A DNA stretch of 64,000 nt. Source: Verrucomicrobiia bacterium. Lineage in GTDB: Bacteria > Verrucomicrobiota > Verrucomicrobiia > Limisphaerales > UBA11358. The notes below the pieces were generated by a model. It saw nothing but the letters and a program-made list of their open reading frames with translations, was not told the DNA's origin and searched no databases. This document shows, piece after piece, positions 35,006 through 56,698 of the stretch (within the stretch, counting starts at the first letter, position 1; the number at the start of each line of letters is the position of its first letter). The stretch covers positions 3,089 through 67,088 of the forward strand of contig DASYEY010000126.1 of NCBI GenBank assembly GCA_036498725.1. Direction: 5' to 3'. The position numbers and the translations under genes were made by a program.

Positions 35006-35082
35006 GGAGCGCGGAGCATTGCTCCGCGTGTTCTCTTTGCAGTGCTGAGTAGAATTAGCGGAGCAGCAATGCTCCGCGCTCC
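35006..35082. repeat. REPIN-like inverted doublet of the REP palindrome GCGGAGCA(N)TGCTCCGC
   Basis: 'GGAGCGCGGAGCATTGCTCCGC' (35006-35027) and 'GCGGAGCAGCAATGCTCCGCGCTCC' (35058-35082). The asymmetric tails GGAGCGC/GCGCTCC are mutually complementary. The doublet lies between the thrS stop and the RAYT stop. Confidence 0.85.
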
Positions 35083-35083
35083 G

Positions 35084-35875
35084 TCAGCTTGGAAATTTTA
35101 ACTCCCATGTTTGTGGGTTGCGAAAGCGAGCGCTACTAAATGGCCAATCTTCAGGCGTATGGCAAAGTTTTGCCTTTATCGGATTATTTTCGATATAGCG
35201 CATAGCTTTCTGCGTTTGTTCTGAATCCCGCATATAGGTGTCCCAGTAGTCCATTTGCCAAAAATCACCAGTGCGTACCAGCAGCTTGTTCGCAGTGACG
35301 GCGGTAAAGGATTTCCAATTCTGAATTATCTTTAAAAGTGGCGTAGTGTTCACTTTGATCAACGCATGAACATGATTCGGCATCACGACCCAAGCTAGCA
35401 GATCAAACCGTTGGCCGTGATGAAAGCACATGGCTTTTTCCACTAGCGCAGCGATGTGCGGATTCCGGAGGAAACATTCGCCATGGCCTCGGTCGATGTA
35501 TTCCTCCAGTTTCCTGTGTTGTTCACGGGCGGCGTCATGACGGTGAGCAAGGCTGTTAATACGTTCGGGCGAAGCAATGCTTCGCGCTCCAGCTTGGGCT
35601 TCTTCACCCGGCGCAGCGGAACGCGGAGCATTGCTCCGCTCGGCGGCCAGCAAAGACTTCCACTCTCCACGCTGCGAAGCTGGCAAAGAATCCCATAGTC
35701 GAAACGTAACAAATTGAACCAAGCCGGGCTTGTCGCAATGTGGTAGATAGCCACGTTCATGCCAGCCTTTAAAATCTTGATTTTTTGCACCTGGTGGGAG
35801 TGGCACACTCCACGCTTGCTTTTCAGCGACGAGGCGGCGCAGGTGTTCGCGCTTGGATTGAGGCGGATGTTCCAT
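35084..35875 (-). CDS. REP-associated tyrosine transposase (RAYT; IS200/IS605-like Y1 HUH transposase)
   Basis: 'LVQFVTFRLWDSLP'. HUH motif in 'WVVMPNHVHALIKV'. Catalytic Tyr region 'KAMRYIENNPIKAKL'. Flanked on both sides by REP palindromes. ATG at 35875 ('MEHPPQSK') is preferred over the track's TTG at 35935, which lies inside a REP. Confidence 0.8.
   Translation of the reverse strand: MEHPPQSKREHLRRLVAEKQAWSVPLPPGAKNQDFKGWHERGYLPHCDKPGLVQFVTFRLWDSLPASQRGEWKSLLAAERSNAPRSAAPGEEAQAGARSIASPERINSLAHRHDAAREQHRKLEEYIDRGHGECFLRNPHIAALVEKAMCFHHGQRFDLLAWVVMPNHVHALIKVNTTPLLKIIQNWKSFTAVTANKLLVRTGDFWQMDYWDTYMRDSEQTQKAMRYIENNPIKAKLCHTPEDWPFSSARFRNPQTWELKFPS
35569..35639. repeat. REP palindrome doublet located inside the RAYT coding sequence
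   Basis: 'GCGAAGCAATGCTTCGCGCTCC' (35569-35590) and 'GGAACGCGGAGCATTGCTCCGC' (35617-35639). In frame, these encode '...ERSNAPRSAAPGEEAQAGARSIASPE...'. Confidence 0.8.
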
Positions 35876-35926
35876 GGGAGCGTAGAGCGTTACTCTATAT
35901 GATTCGATTGAATCACAAAGGGATTC

Positions 35927-35948
35927 GCGGAGCAATGCTCCGCGCTCC
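35927..35948. repeat. REP palindrome copy upstream of the RAYT gene
   Basis: 'GCGGAGCAATGCTCCGCGCTCC', 52 nt upstream of the RAYT ATG. Confidence 0.85.
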
Positions 35949-36017: not shown

Positions 36018-36824
36018 TCAACCGATCAATTCACGCACCTTTGCGCCGATGTCGCCTTGTTTGACGAGTGATTCGCCCACGAGGATCGCGCTTGCGCCAC
36101 ATTTTTTGACGCGTTCCACATCCGTCCGAGTGTGGATACCGCTTTCGGCAACCAACAGTGACGAGTGATGAGTGACAGGTGATGAGTGTAATTTCGCCGC
36201 AAGTTGTTCCGTTGTGGCCAGGTCCACCTTGAACGTTTTCAAGTTGCGATTGTTCACGCCAATCAGCGCGGGAGAAATCTTCAACGCGCGCGTCAATTCT
36301 TCATCGTCGTGCACTTCCACTAAAACCGCGAGGCCAGCTTCGATGGCGAGTGAATGGAATTTTTGCAACTGTTCATCAGTCAAAATGGCGACGATGAGCA
36401 GGATGGCATCCGCGCCCCATTCAATGGCCTCCAGGATTTGCCGTTCATCAATGATGAAATCTTTCCGCAATAACGGCAGCTTTACGGCAGCACGGATTTG
36501 GCGAAGATAATCCAGTGATCCTTGGAAAAATTGTTCATCGGTCAAAACCGAAAGGCAGCTTGCGCCCGCCGCTTCGTATTCTTTGGCGATGCGAACGGGA
36601 TCGAAGTTCGGGCAAATGACACCCATGGAGGGTGAGGCCTTTTTTACTTCGGCGATCAGTCCGATGGTGCCACCGGATGGATGCTTTAGGGCAGAAATGA
36701 AATCGCGCCGTTCGCCATGTTCCAGCATCGCATCGCGCAGGTCACCGGCGGCAATGATGCGGGCCGGAAGCTTGGCGACTTCCAGTTTCTTTTGTTCAAC
36801 GATGGTTTCTAAGATGTTTGCCAC
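36018..36824 (-). CDS. trpC: Indole-3-glycerol-phosphate synthase
   Basis: 'GLIAEVKKASPSMG', 'CLSVLTDEQFFQGS', 'PLLRKDFIIDERQI', 'IGVNNRNLKTF'. The only plausible start is GTG 36824-36822, which lies inside the left inverted repeat of the neighbouring cassette. Confidence 0.9.
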   Translation of the reverse strand: MANILETIVEQKKLEVAKLPARIIAAGDLRDAMLEHGERRDFISALKHPSGGTIGLIAEVKKASPSMGVICPNFDPVRIAKEYEAAGASCLSVLTDEQFFQGSLDYLRQIRAAVKLPLLRKDFIIDERQILEAIEWGADAILLIVAILTDEQLQKFHSLAIEAGLAVLVEVHDDEELTRALKISPALIGVNNRNLKTFKVDLATTEQLAAKLHSSPVTHHSSLLVAESGIHTRTDVERVKKCGASAILVGESLVKQGDIGAKVRELIG

Positions 36825-37260
36825 AGAGTCACAGAGAACACAGAGTTAAAGCATCAATCGTTTGATGCCATCTTTGAGCAGACGCGGGTTAAAATTCAAC
36901 AGTAATCCGCGTTTTAATCCGGTTATTTTCAAATAAGCTAATAATTGCGCTTCAAAGACCGGATCAAATCTTTCCACGCTTTTGAGTTCAATGATAACTA
37001 ATTTTTCGACTACCAAGTCCAGCCGGTATTCTCCAATCACCTGATTCTTATAGGTAATGGGAACAATCAACTGCTGCTCAAAATTCAAACCCGCTATTCG
37101 CAGTTCTATGCAGAGAGCAGATTCATAAGTGGATTCCAATAAACCTGGGCCAAGCGTCCGATGAACTTCAATCGCGCAACCGATAATTTTCTCAGTTAGC
37201 GGATCACGATCCTCTGAAAATTCCAAGTTCATTTCTCTGTGCGCTCTGTGACTCTGTGGC
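36820..37260 (-). mobile_element. 441-bp GxxExxY gene cassette bounded by 26-bp terminal inverted repeats made of three CACAGAG heptads
   Basis: The left end is 'GCCACAGAGTCACAGAGAACACAGAG' (36820-36845). The reverse complement of the right end (37235-37260) is 'GCCACAGAGTCACAGAGCGCACAGAG', giving 24/26 identity. The cassette fills the prfB-trpC gap. Confidence 0.5.
36846..37232 (-). CDS. GxxExxY family protein (PD-(D/E)XK nuclease superfamily)
   Basis: 'IGCAIEVHRTLGPGLLESTYESALCIEL' contains G-L-L-E-S-T-Y. 'YRLDLVVEKLVIIELK' is the core. ATG at 37232 ('MNLEFSEDRD') is preferred; the track's longer N-terminus 'MPQSHRAHRE' is a translation of the heptad repeat. Confidence 0.8.
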   Translation of the reverse strand: MNLEFSEDRDPLTEKIIGCAIEVHRTLGPGLLESTYESALCIELRIAGLNFEQQLIVPITYKNQVIGEYRLDLVVEKLVIIELKSVERFDPVFEAQLLAYLKITGLKRGLLLNFNPRLLKDGIKRLML

Positions 37261-37271
37261 AAAAATGAAAA

Positions 37272-38421
37272 TTATTCTTCCTCATCCTTCACGCCCTGCA
37301 TCCGTTTGAGCGGGCAGCCGGCGCGCAGCCAGGCGTTGATAAACGGGTCGAGCGCGCCGTCCATCACGGCTTGCACGTCGCTGGATTGTTCGCCGGTGCG
37401 CAAGTCTTTGACCATGCGATAGGGCTGAAAAATGTAGCTGCGAATCTGGTTGCCCCACGAAATACTGCCTTTGTCCCCGTAAAAACGTTCCATCTCGCCT
37501 TTCGCCTGGTCGAGTTTCAGCGCGTAAAGTTTGGAGATGAGCATTTGCATCGCGGTGGCTTCGTTTTGCACCTGGCTGCGTTGCGCCTGGGACGCGGCGA
37601 CGAGGCCGGTCGGGATGTGCGTGAGGCGCACGGCGGTTTCGACTTTGTTTACGTTCTGACCACCTTTGCCGCCGGAACGATACGTATCGCGCCGGATTTC
37701 CACTTTAGGGATCACAATGTCGGTTTCGAGCAGATCGCTTAATTCCGCCACGATGTCCACGCTGGAAAAACTTGTGTGCCGGCGCTTGTTGGAATCGAAC
37801 GGCGAAATGCGCACGAGCCGATGCACGCCGCGTTCGGCTTTGCAAAATCCGTAGGCGTTCTCGCCTTCGACCCGGAAGGTGACACTTTTTAGCCCGGCGG
37901 AGTCACCGGCGAGCGCGTCGGTGACTTCCCATTTCCAGCCGCGTGAATCAAACCAGCGGCCATACATGCGCGACAGCATTTCCGCCCAGTCCTGGGCTTC
38001 AGTACCGCCGGCCCCAGCGTTGATGGTGAAGATGCAATTACACTTGTCGTGCGGGCCGTTCAAGAACGTTCGCAGTTCGAAAGTATCAAGATCAGCGAAC
38101 AATTTTTTGAGATCCGCCGCCATCTCAATTTCGAGTTTGAGCTGCATTTCCTCCGGCTCGGCGGCGGCGAGTTCCAGCATCACCTGCAGATCTTCGACTT
38201 GTTTGCCGAAGCGCGTGAGTGGCTCGAGTTTGCCGCGGATATCGTTGGTTTCGTTGATGACCTTTTGCGCGGCTTCCTGGTTGTTCCAGAAAGTTTCGCC
38301 GGTCATCTGCGCTTCAAGCTCAGCGAGGCGTTGGTTCAATTTGGCGACGTCAAAGAAACCTCCGCAAGTGCGTGATTTTGTCAGCAGCGGTGGCGATCTG
38401 TGGTTTGACGAGGTCGAACAT
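37272..38421 (-). CDS. prfB: Peptide chain release factor 2, requiring a programmed +1 frameshift (frame 0: 38421..38353; frame +1: 38351..37272)
   Basis: The minus strand reads 'ATG TTC GAC CTC GTC AAA ... CGG AGG TTT CTT TGA C'. This is the classic CUU UGA C shift site with an upstream SD-like GGAGG. Downstream are 'DVAKLNQRLAELE', 'RISPFD' (SPF) and 'SGGKGGQNVNKVETAVRLTHIPTG' (GGQ). Confidence 0.9.
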
Positions 38422-38462
38422 CCAGACAAACTACCGAAATGGAAGGCGGGAATCCAGAATTC

Positions 38463-55051: not shown

Positions 55052-55642
55052 CTACTTGTTTTTCCCCACGGCCGGAATCTTGGCCAAATCCGGCGGTAAT
55101 TTATCCGCCTCAAAAGCTTCAACTTCCAGCGCGATCAAACTGACCAGCGGTAAACCCAGATTCACCGTGCCATTGGAACGGTCCACAATGACCGCGACGC
55201 TGACGACGTTGCCGCCGAGTGCGTTGACGATATCCAGGGTTTCCTGCACGCGGCCGCCTTTGGTGATGACATCCTCAACGACGAGAATTTTTTCGCCCGG
55301 CGCGATCTTGAAGCCACGGCGCAGGACAAGTTTGCCTTCTTCTTTTTCAACAAAAATGAAACGCACGCCCAGTTGCCGCGCCACTTCCTGGCCGATGACC
55401 AGTCCGCCCATCGCCGGAGCGACGACCGTGGTCACGCCGAGCGATTTCACCCTGGCTGCCAGTGCGGCGCCGAGTTTTTCCACGATGGGCATTTGTTGGA
55501 GCGCGAGGGCGCATTGAAATAATTGCCGGCTATGCAACCCGCTGCGCAGGATGAAATGGCCTTCGAGCAAGGCACCCGTGTCGCGAAAAATCTGCAAGGC
55601 TTCGTCTTTTGTCATGTCCAAAATGTTAAGATGAAAGCCCAA
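55052..55642 (-). CDS. pyrE: Orotate phosphoribosyltransferase
   Basis: 'GHFILRSGLHS'. PRPP loop 'ILVVEDVITKGGRV'. Confidence 0.9.
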   Translation of the reverse strand: MGFHLNILDMTKDEALQIFRDTGALLEGHFILRSGLHSRQLFQCALALQQMPIVEKLGAALAARVKSLGVTTVVAPAMGGLVIGQEVARQLGVRFIFVEKEEGKLVLRRGFKIAPGEKILVVEDVITKGGRVQETLDIVNALGGNVVSVAVIVDRSNGTVNLGLPLVSLIALEVEAFEADKLPPDLAKIPAVGKNK

Positions 55643-55749
55643 AGTTCAAAGTCCAAAATTAACTGCCAAGCCGAGCGCCGTAGGTGCGTCATCTTTGTAG
55701 AACCGCACCGTAAAAAACCAAGCTCCAGCGGAGCGACATATTCCCGACC

Positions 55750-55801
55750 GTGGCTTTGGCTGCGCTGCGGCCAAAGTCGTCGCCGAGCGCAGCGTCAGGC
55801 G
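55750..55801 (-). repeat. Family B hairpin repeat, copy 2 (reverse-complement orientation)
   Basis: The reverse complement reads 'CGCCTGACGCTGCGCTCGGCGACGACTTTGGCCGCAGCGCAGCCAAAGCCAC'. Confidence 0.85.
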
Positions 55802-56006
55802 CCGAAATGTTGTGGGTCCAACTGCCACGAAATCGTCCTCGTGCTCATCGTCGCCCTCGCTCTCGCCCGCTGGTGAAAATTCGAGGACGAGGGCGAGGAC
55901 GACGATGAGGATGAACTGGATGTTAAAACTGATTGTTCAGGCACGCTTTCAGCAATTCAGGGAGAGCGTGTCCTGCCGTTTATAAACTGAGTTCCCGCGA
56001 TTTTTC

Positions 56007-56032
56007 CTCTGTGCTCTCTGTGCCTCTGCGGC
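56007..56032 (+). repeat. Solo copy of the CACAGAG-heptad inverted-repeat sequence
   Basis: 'CTCTGTGCTCTCTGTGCCTCTGCGGC' matches the right end of the GxxExxY cassette (37235-37260) at 23/26 positions. It ends 12 nt upstream of the 56045 start codon. Confidence 0.6.
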
Positions 56033-56044
56033 TAAATTTCCGCC

Positions 56045-56698
56045 GTGCCGAAGTGGATCAAGTTCATCATTGCGATTTTGCTGCTGCCAGTTTGCGTCGG
56101 CGCGGCGCGGACGTTATGGCTGGTGTTGCACGCTTGCGGGAGCGTGGATACGACCTGGGTGCCACTTTTAGCTGGTGCCGCCTGCTGGGTGGGCATTTTT
56201 TTGCTGCTGCCCAAACCAATGTGGGTTTATGTGTTCGGGCACGAATTGACGCATGCGTTGTGGACATGGTTGTTTGGTGGTGAAGTCAAAAAAATGAAAG
56301 TCACGTCCAAGGGCGGGCACGTGGTTATTTCCAAAACCAATTTTCTCATCGCCCTCGCCCCCTATTTCTTTCCGCTCTACGCGGTCATCGTCGTCCTGGT
56401 GTTTGCGTTGGGCGATTTCATCTGGAACTGGCATGGCCAGTTGGTCTGGTTCCACCTTTTGGTTGGTGCCGCCTACGCTTTTCACCTCACGCTGACATTT
56501 CACGTCCTGAAAACCCGGCAGACGGACATTACGTCGCAGGGGTATCTGTTTTCCATCGTTGTGATTTTTCTCGGCAACATCAGCGTACTGTTGTTGGGCA
56601 TCCCTTTGCTCACGGAGCGGGTCGGCATTCTGAAAGTATTCGGCTGGTGGTTTAAAAGTGTCGGCGACGTTTTTTTATGGCTGCAACGTGTCATCTGA
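56045..56698 (+). CDS. Integral-membrane HExxH protein (M50B-like/zincin-like metallopeptidase family)
   Basis: 'VFGHELTHALWTWLFGGEVKKMKVTSKGGHVV' places an HExxH at the end of a TM helix. About 6 hydrophobic helices. Confidence 0.55.
   Translation: MPKWIKFIIAILLLPVCVGAARTLWLVLHACGSVDTTWVPLLAGAACWVGIFLLLPKPMWVYVFGHELTHALWTWLFGGEVKKMKVTSKGGHVVISKTNFLIALAPYFFPLYAVIVVLVFALGDFIWNWHGQLVWFHLLVGAAYAFHLTLTFHVLKTRQTDITSQGYLFSIVVIFLGNISVLLLGIPLLTERVGILKVFGWWFKSVGDVFLWLQRVI

Follow-up and report, generated by a model that had tools for sequence, protein, structure and literature searches.

The window analyzed here is a 64,000-nucleotide (nt) stretch of a Verrucomicrobiia bacterium (contig DASYEY010000126.1, positions 3,089 to 67,088), and the element in question is a 441-bp unit between prfB and trpC. 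Read along the minus strand, the order is prfB (37272..38429, with its stop at 37272-37274), a repeat arm (37235..37266), a GxxExxY / PDDEXK_3 gene encoding a minimal PD-(D/E)XK nuclease of 128 amino acids (aa) (36846..37232), a second arm (36814..36845), trpC (36018..36824) and a RAYT (REP-associated tyrosine transposase; REP, repetitive extragenic palindrome) gene. The original prediction, made from this sequence, had described the GxxExxY gene as bounded by inverted 26-nt ends, and this was supported by the following data. The left end at 36820-36845 reads GCCACAGAGTCACAGAGAACACAGAG, and 37235-37260 in reverse complement reads GCCACAGAGTCACAGAGCGCACAGAG; the two are identical at 24 of 26 positions, the 2-nt inner spacer being the sole difference, and each is made up of GC and a run of three CACAGAG heptads, spaced by 1 and 2 nt. 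The arms are even longer than had been claimed, as a repeat finder extended the inverted repeat to 32 nt (36814-36845 / 37235-37266) at 91% complementarity. In gene orientation, the 5' arm is composed of the outer flank ATTTTTGC followed by CACAGAG-T-CACAGAG-CG-CACAGAG, and the 3' arm of CTCTGTG-TT-CTCTGTG-A-CTCTGTG followed by the outer flank GCAAACAT. The two-heptad pattern CACAGAGNCACAGAG was found three times in the window when up to two mismatches were allowed, compared to 0.17 expected, and none of 100 shuffles reached three.

The arms hug the gene as predicted, the ATG lying 2 nt past the 5' arm and the TAA stop directly abutting the 3' arm. The stop of prfB is 11 nt from the 26-nt repeat (37260) and 5 nt from the outer edge of the 32-nt arm (37266). 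On the other side, the 3' arm overlaps codons 1-4 of trpC, the first codons of which are arm sequence. The trpC GTG start codon (36822..36824) forms the final three bases of the outermost heptad and, in the trpC open reading frame (ORF), is the first start to follow an in-frame stop; its product, MANILETIV..., aligned with TrpC models from residue 1. The claim that the only plausible trpC start lies inside the arm was thus borne out, and the arm supplies this start in every cassette-bearing relative examined, the arrangement CTCTGTG-GCA-AAY being found also in L202 and L203. The same arrangement was present on a near-identical metagenome contig (99.8%). A solo copy of the heptads, placed near 56007 in the original prediction, is also real: CTCTGTGCTCTCTGTGCCTCTGCGGC at 56006-56032 (plus strand) is an array of the 3'-arm type (CTCTGTG-CT-CTCTGTG-C-CTCTGCG-GC); a 217-aa ORF with an HExxH motif (56045-56698) has its GTG 13 nt downstream, and the array has no partner arm nearby. 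The divergent intergenic region around it (55613-56045) is rich in other short-period repeats, including AAAGTCC x3.4 at 55634-55657 and a hairpin with GACGAG-like hexad arms at approximately 55840-55911.

The window protein matched TIGR04256 (E = 1.6e-43; 147.8 bits against a cut-off of 35) and PF13366 (E = 2.6e-42; 144.3 bits against a cut-off of 22). In six proteins that are mutually about 50% identical, G30-L-L-E33-S-T-Y36, D72 and E82-L-K84 were invariant and Q96xxxY100 was also kept, while in an alignment of 43 orthologues G30, Y36, E82 and K84 were invariant and E33 and D72 were at least 90% conserved. RecB-type nucleases typically have such a QxxxY motif. The best solved-structure neighbours of an AlphaFold2 model (mean predicted local distance difference test score [pLDDT], 82.6) were Cas4 SSO0001, lambda exonuclease, LHK-Exo and the nuclease domain of AdnAB, and a library of defence-system models gave a weak match to a Cas4 hidden Markov model and nothing else. 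No known class of transposase or recombinase (DDE, HUH, serine or tyrosine) was found among the profile matches of the cassette, the only ORF of which is the PD-(D/E)XK nuclease. No solved structure matched the protein by sequence, nor did any phage protein family. Since phage genomes contained no homologue and plasmids only 8 in 72,556, the cassette was deduced not to be phage- or plasmid-borne. When residues tracking CAC versus CGC heptads were sought as specificity determinants, a single C-terminal column (N versus L) correlated; phylogeny confounds this correlation and no claim is made from it. With respect to the family at large, a cas4 gene labelled as a GxxExxY domain has been noted (PMC8934634), and a 2012 survey of the PD-(D/E)XK superfamily listed PDDEXK_3 as 'Unknown', with 'multiple transfers, mixed clades' (PMC3424549).

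The wider family was sampled as 80 metagenome loci chosen by protein similarity alone (49-74% identity), 77 of which had sufficient flank, and arrays were scored where at least two heptads, CRCNRAG upstream or CTYNGYG downstream, stood in the same orientation as in the window. Arrays were found to adjoin the gene in 57 of the 77 loci, on both sides in 29, compared to a background of 45 in 1599 windows of 75 nt (2.8%). The distance from the end of the last upstream heptad to the start codon has a median of 10 nt, and that from the stop codon to the first downstream heptad a median of 6 nt. In its general form, an arm is approximately 30 nt long and has TTNRC as its outer flank and then three CRCNRAG heptads, with 1-3 free bases between them. 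Variants of the heptad include CACGGAG, CACGAAG, CGCAGAG, CGCCGAG and CAGTGAG, and both arms of one element tend to share one variant. Arms were also present at genes annotated 'GxxExxY protein' in RefSeq in Bacteroides finegoldii (radA-GxxExxY-FAD protein), Bernardetia and Sphingomonas parapaucimobilis (fabD-GxxExxY-fabG; the arms are CGCGAAG). In each case the gene is squeezed in between housekeeping genes of the same orientation, and 76-82% of the genes beside GxxExxY at the metagenome loci are co-directional with it. The check that had been called for, whether other GxxExxY copies carry inverted heptad arrays, was therefore answered in the affirmative for most of an unbiased sample and for annotated genomes. 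The nuclease-plus-repeat architecture is not a local oddity of the window and is found in a wide range of bacterial lineages.

Two variations on this architecture were observed. On plasmid 1 of Gemmatirosa kalamazoonensis (993599-994260; L226 43599-44260), a GxxExxY gene occupies the space that separates two complete CGCAGAG hairpins; its match is split in two, and it may be frameshifted. A composite element, present in L201 (700-1660) and L167 (1860-2300), consists of an arm, GxxExxY, a second 5'-type arm and a second ORF, with a 3' arm following in L201. The second ORF of L201 encodes a 256-aa DUF5677 protein (PF18928, E = 6.5e-12) bracketed by the same arrays, and the fragment in the same position in L167 had no Pfam match. 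No other recurrent gene family was found between or beside the arms at the heptad-array loci, the DUF5677 gene of L201 being the only extra cargo. The four-helix-bundle proteins of rRNA intervening sequences were considered as arm cargo and rejected, as none was found beside heptad arrays.

That the gene and its arms form a unit was deduced from cassettes that are related to one another but differently placed. The pairs L135/L163 (83% nucleotide identity) and L167/L201 (81%) lie in unrelated contexts with unrelated flanks. The alignment of L135 with L163 runs from about 13 nt outside the first heptad to just past the last, which corresponds to the outer edges of both arms, and between L167 and L201 the homology sets in at the 5' arm's outer edge. 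In S. parapaucimobilis the cassette interrupts fabD-fabG, where S. paeninsulae has a spacer of 33 nt without heptads, these two species being only 68% identical in the fabD-fabG region. This part of the original prediction is upheld, related cassettes being found in unrelated contexts with homology that ends at the arms. Judged on such alignments, and also on the heptad variant that distant arrays share with their cassette and on the transfers listed in the 2012 survey, the gene plus arms is a discrete, transferable unit. The outer flanks are inverted (TTNRC...GYNAA) and not direct. Mobility, if any, was deduced not to be recent in this sample because the closest pair is only 83% identical.

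At the prfB-trpC junction itself, the 120 best database relatives of the protein were 73-85% identical to it, and the orthologue P0179 and the relatives on the L202 and L203 contigs were at prfB-trpC on every contig checked. The ratio of nonsynonymous to synonymous substitution rates (dN/dS) of GxxExxY among the window, L202 and L203 was 0.06-0.10 at dS 0.9-1.8, indistinguishable from those of trpC (0.05-0.08) and prfB (0.07-0.09). Comparison of the window with L202, L203 and L211 showed one-letter changes in just two heptads, while the spacer bases all vary freely. Because dN/dS is low and the heptads are nearly unchanged at this divergence, the cassette was deduced to be old, vertically inherited and under selection in both the gene and the heptads. 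The proposed insertion between prfB and trpC is thus supported as regards a unit with arms; it is ancient, inherited vertically under purifying selection, and not recent.

Relatives without the gene carry other structures at this junction. L204 (2457-2500) has a solo array, CTCCGCG-T-CTTTGCG-T-CTCTGCG; L207/L208 (2480-2565) a short CGCAAAG/CTTTGCG hairpin; L210 (2515-2600) an ACAGAAT/ATTCTGT hairpin; and L205/L206 (2420-2535) an AACATTC/GAATGTT hairpin. At orthologous junctions with other heptads, all repeats of one element have changed together. The arm-derived TrpC N terminus (M/V)ANIL is present in 30 of 118 close homologues, and since these are scattered over a poorly resolved tree, repeated gain or loss of the cassette is suggested; loss is suggested in L207 and L210, which keep the arm-derived Ala codon without the gene. 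The junction comparison that had been proposed therefore gave a mixed outcome, as the site is polymorphic but no clean empty site was found among close gene-less relatives (TrpC 85-91% identical), which carry the other heptad structures instead.

As gene-less hairpins, a point absent from the original prediction, the arms are far commoner than as cassettes. An exact scan for CAGAGNCACAGAGNNCACAGAG, with one genome per species, returned at least 120 loci, where by our own estimate about 4 were expected by chance. By their record titles, lineages among the matches listed include Acidobacteria, Planctomycetes, Verrucomicrobia, Chloroflexi, Nostoc and other cyanobacteria, Thermodesulfobacteriota, Sorangium, proteobacteria, a chlamydia and Methanothrix. 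Arrays are present in complete genomes such as those of Nostoc sp. NIES-4103, Sorangium cellulosum So0157-2, Gemmatirosa kalamazoonensis and Bacteroides species. The 209 arrays in these loci are mostly ORF-free inverted pairs (CACAGAGx3 ... CTCTGTGx3) spaced 2-150 nt apart, with the consensus arm ttcaC-CACAGAG-R-CACAGAG-NN-CACAGAG. A GxxExxY gene was present in five of the loci and adjoined arrays in four of these. The 217-nt spacer of L082 is an internally deleted GxxExxY gene (tblastn E of 1e-9 to 1e-11). The short hairpins showed no common spacer motif other than extra heptads and, in a few, a weak ATCTTGT word. Searches against Rfam 15 gave nothing relevant in the cassette at E values up to 10, and neither in the window nor in 10 heptad loci did any family reach its gathering score.

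The hairpins and the cassette of one contig tend to be built of the same heptad. The Gemmatirosa plasmid contains 21 arrays (about ten hairpins) in 150 kb with one GxxExxY gene, where shuffled sequence gave 0-0.2 arrays per 50-kb segment; these arrays are mainly CGCAGAG, with a minority of CACGGAG/CACAGAG. Across contigs, 21 of the 38 arrays lying more than 150 nt from a cassette carry its dominant heptad, compared to 6.3 expected, and none of 2000 shuffles reached 21, a count in which several arrays come from one contig.

From these data we hypothesize that the loci represent a widespread, apparently undescribed class of cassette, in which a GxxExxY nuclease gene set in heptad arms was once mobile and acts on heptad arrays in a manner resembling REPIN-RAYT systems (REPIN, a hairpin formed by paired REPs), and we put the probability of this at a little above one half (about 0.55). 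A stronger version, for which we would not quite offer even odds, holds that GxxExxY proteins are dedicated nucleases of a new cross-phyla family of heptad hairpins, that they recognize CRCNRAG and move or maintain both cassette and hairpins, and that their specificity co-evolves with the variant of the genome. This would constitute a second, mechanistically independent invention of the nuclease-repeat partnership of the REPIN-RAYT type. Mechanistically, the nuclease would bind or cleave heptad arrays, probably as DNA and possibly as extruded hairpins or single strands, and would act in cis on its own arms and in trans on gene-less hairpins. In the past the cassette may have been cut out and inserted anew, or else copied in a homing-type process primed from its arms, in either case without target duplication, and the insert would be tolerated within operons because the arms pair. 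In the present state, one nuclease gene would maintain a REPIN-RAYT-like relation with a population of hairpins. The new part is apparently the combination of this enzyme class with arms of tandem heptads, a nuclease gene, inverted repeats and dispersed hairpins being of a known kind.

A number of observations weigh against the once-mobile cassette. The target duplications looked for at the ends were not seen: no direct repeats lie beside the arms in the window, L202, L203, L135, L163 or L224. The sample contained no near-identical copies at different places, and the exact orthologue P0179 occurs in a single context, prfB-GxxExxY-trpC, on 24 of 24 contigs. Strong purifying selection over dS above 1 is as compatible with a gene that serves the host as with a selfish gene. 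At the home junction no clean empty site was found, and from the relatives with hairpins of other heptads it follows that hairpins may exist there independently of the gene. By the scoring used, 20 of the 77 loci are without arrays; some genes sit between two hairpins and not within one (Gemmatirosa, L123 and L160); and no dispersed arrays were found in the 50 kb around the Sphingomonas cassette. With regard to the enzyme, the fold matches are weak (E from 2e-3 to 4e-2, template modeling [TM] scores of about 0.5), and to our knowledge strand-transfer activity is known for no PD-(D/E)XK protein of 128 aa. Literature text searches, which were incomplete in coverage, returned no account of this association and no functional study of GxxExxY/PF13366.

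An alternative that we consider unlikely, but the best of those weighed, is that the unit functions in RNA. The arms would form a long stem in a prfB-X-trpC transcript, the gene being one that belongs to the host and is expressed from an unusual platform, and the stem would silence or time translation of the ORF, provide an RNase III site, or join the prfB stop to the trpC start; gene-less hairpins would then be ordinary REP-like hairpins that stabilize or process mRNA. Consistent with this, the arms are paired with each other, enclosing the complete ORF, in the predicted minimum-energy structure of the sense RNA (-161.5 kcal/mol, z = -7.7), and the ATG, 2 nt from the stem, would have its initiation region occluded. 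The predominance of co-directional neighbours places the gene usually within operons, some hairpin or array is present at prfB-trpC in every relative whatever its sequence, and purifying selection on the gene is as expected for host genes. The arm mismatches, however, show no preference for G.U: in the 42 cassettes with alignable arms, 63 were of the kind that allows G.U in the sense strand and 67 of the A.C kind, and 200 were transversions. Although spacers and position 4 of the heptad frequently lack a pairing partner, the letters of the heptad are conserved. Unlinked arrays of the same contig have the same heptad variant, which pairing alone does not require. The ending of homology at the arms across contexts and the insertion in the fab operon likewise point to a transferable DNA unit. 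On the basis of the missing G.U excess, the conserved letters and their sharing with unlinked arrays, recognition of sequence is favoured over pairing alone. The comparison favours heptads recognized by a factor, most simply the encoded nuclease, with which selection for pairing would be compatible.

It is also conceivable, although improbable, that the hairpins came first as older independent repeats and that GxxExxY genes home into their loops, the arms being the target and not the ends of an element. In this scheme, the nuclease cuts a hairpin and repair copies the gene using the arms as homology. The excess of gene-less hairpins over cassettes (about 10:1), the hairpins of unrelated heptads at the same junction in relatives and the lack of visible target duplications would all be accommodated, as would the inverted similarity that sometimes extends 10-40 nt beyond the heptads (L096, L142 and L140), resembling a longer palindrome. 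The reverse direction is nevertheless documented by L082, a short element that arose by internal deletion of a cassette; the empty fabD-fabG counterpart in Sphingomonas has no heptad hairpin; and the homology of related cassettes takes in the arms together with the outer flank.

A third explanation, already offered with the original prediction, is that the heptad array is a leader or regulatory motif placed just before start codons and that its inverted arrangement around the gene is incidental. Arrays of the 3'-arm type do precede trpC and the start at 56045 in the window and trpC in L204 and L207, and direct repeats of a heptamer that stop 1 nt short of start codons are known across phyla (PMC4679880). 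Such a role is possible for the solo copies; it leaves the inverted pairs and the boundaries of the unit unaccounted for. Most arrays are inverted pairs and not single arrays before genes, the downstream arm lies at its short distance past the stop with or without a following gene, and the association is restricted to one protein family; as a general explanation it is very improbable. The connection that had been drawn to the RAYT gene 1 kb away did not survive: that the arms are REPs of this gene (35084-35935), mobilized by it as a REPIN, has a practically negligible chance of being correct, for beyond proximity (about 0.9 kb) and the typical flanking of RAYT genes by inverted REPs nothing favours it, whereas the RAYT gene has its own palindrome, GCGGAGCATTGCTCCGC, which is unlike the heptads and has all its window sites within 35011-35943, no RAYT homologue was found in the 120 heptad-selected loci examined, and cassette-bearing relatives lack RAYT.

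The RAYT gene itself matched NF047646 (E = 9.5e-28) and has the REP palindrome on its flanks. Two more copies (35569-35585 and 35623-35639) lie in the N-terminal part of the ORF, upstream of the match to the transposase model (residues 153-267), from which it follows that the 283-aa ORF may be over-extended or carry REP insertions. In prfB, a canonical +1 programmed frameshift site (GGAGG, then TTT CTT TGA C) is present at 38349-38355 (minus strand CTTTGAC), and the mechanically called ORF (385 aa from a TTG) therefore has a spurious N terminus compared to the 344-355-aa PrfB of relatives. Within trpC, a period-7 array (AGTGACG x4.6, plus strand, 36157-36188) encodes LHSSPVTHHSS, a segment that is variable or absent in close TrpC homologues and is replaced by ITRSGS in the 263-aa forms; a second such insertion is found elsewhere in some homologues, for example RHSPLATRHSS in P0018. 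These variable segments imply that heptad arrays invade coding sequence in frame too. Many database TrpC models (P0016, P0023, P0028 and P0002-P0010) start too far upstream and translate heptad arrays, giving FASLRLCVFALK, SVSLRLCG or MLNVECFPNPA, an annotation artefact caused by the repeats.

PF13366/TIGR04256 is a large family listed with no assigned function, and if its members are tied in cis to inverted heptad arms and in trans to the abundant hairpins of the same heptad, it gains a testable substrate, the heptad array. On the same condition, the widespread intergenic hairpins of Acidobacteriota, Planctomycetota, Verrucomicrobiota, Chloroflexota, Cyanobacteria, Bacteroidota and others would be explained, and a new enzyme class would join the few nuclease-repeat partnerships, namely those of insertion sequences (IS) with miniature inverted-repeat transposable elements (MITEs) and of RAYTs with REPINs. 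In practical terms, the arms break assemblies, mislead gene callers, as in the many TrpC models that begin in translated arrays, and can furnish essential genes next to them with a start codon, trpC being the present example.

Several known systems share features with the cassette. The TAACTGA heptamers of Beggiatoaceae, Cyanobacteria and Bacteroidetes are intergenic tandem repeats that often end just before start codons, and they occur across distant phyla by a mechanism that is not known (PMC4679880). The heptad arrays resemble them in being tandem heptamers, in their intergenic position near start codons and in their distribution over distant phyla, but the TAACTGA repeats are direct repeats of another heptamer, do not form inverted pairs and have no link to a nuclease gene. 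The domains of Cas4, RecB and lambda exonuclease share the core fold and the catalytic D...ExK...QxxxY motifs with GxxExxY, a similarity that is weak (E = 2e-3, TM about 0.5); GxxExxY is far smaller at 128 aa, has none of the Fe-S cluster cysteines and shows no association with CRISPR here. ORF-bearing intervening sequences of 23S rRNA contain a four-helix-bundle 'S23p' ORF inside a stem. Like the cassette, they place a small ORF in the loop of a long inverted-repeat stem within a host transcript; the hosts of the cassette are protein-coding operons, however, and the protein family is different.

Free-standing homing endonuclease genes, which include the PD-(D/E)XK type such as I-Ssp6803I, likewise are small nuclease genes between housekeeping genes, patchy in close relatives and without target duplications. 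Conserved inverted repeats around the gene, or dispersed copies without it, are not a normal feature of homing genes. The cassette has both inverted arms and dispersed copies, and its nuclease is not known to cleave an empty allele. With IS/MITE systems, the cassette shares terminal inverted repeats that bracket a single enzyme gene, homology between copies that stops at these repeats, internally deleted and gene-less derivatives, and possibly one insertion with an empty site in a relative, that of fabD-fabG. It differs from them in having no known transposase class, no target-site duplication and no near-identical multi-copy set that was seen, and in having arms built of heptads.

The cassette is also like REPIN-RAYT, for which a true RAYT with its REPs is available for direct comparison 1 kb from the cassette in the same window. 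In both systems, one nuclease gene lies between inverted copies of a repeat that is also present as many dispersed, intergenic, gene-less hairpins; the repeat is genome-specific and common to the gene flanks and the dispersed copies; and the gene is vertically inherited under purifying selection. The enzyme of the cassette, however, is a 128-aa PD-(D/E)XK protein (Cas4/RecB-like) and not an HUH Y1 (IS200-like) transposase, and GxxExxY genes, unlike RAYTs, can be multi-copy. The repeats differ as well: each arm of the cassette consists of three tandem heptads without an internal palindrome, with a core heptad common to many lineages, whereas a REP is a palindrome with a GTAG or CGTC tag that differs between species.

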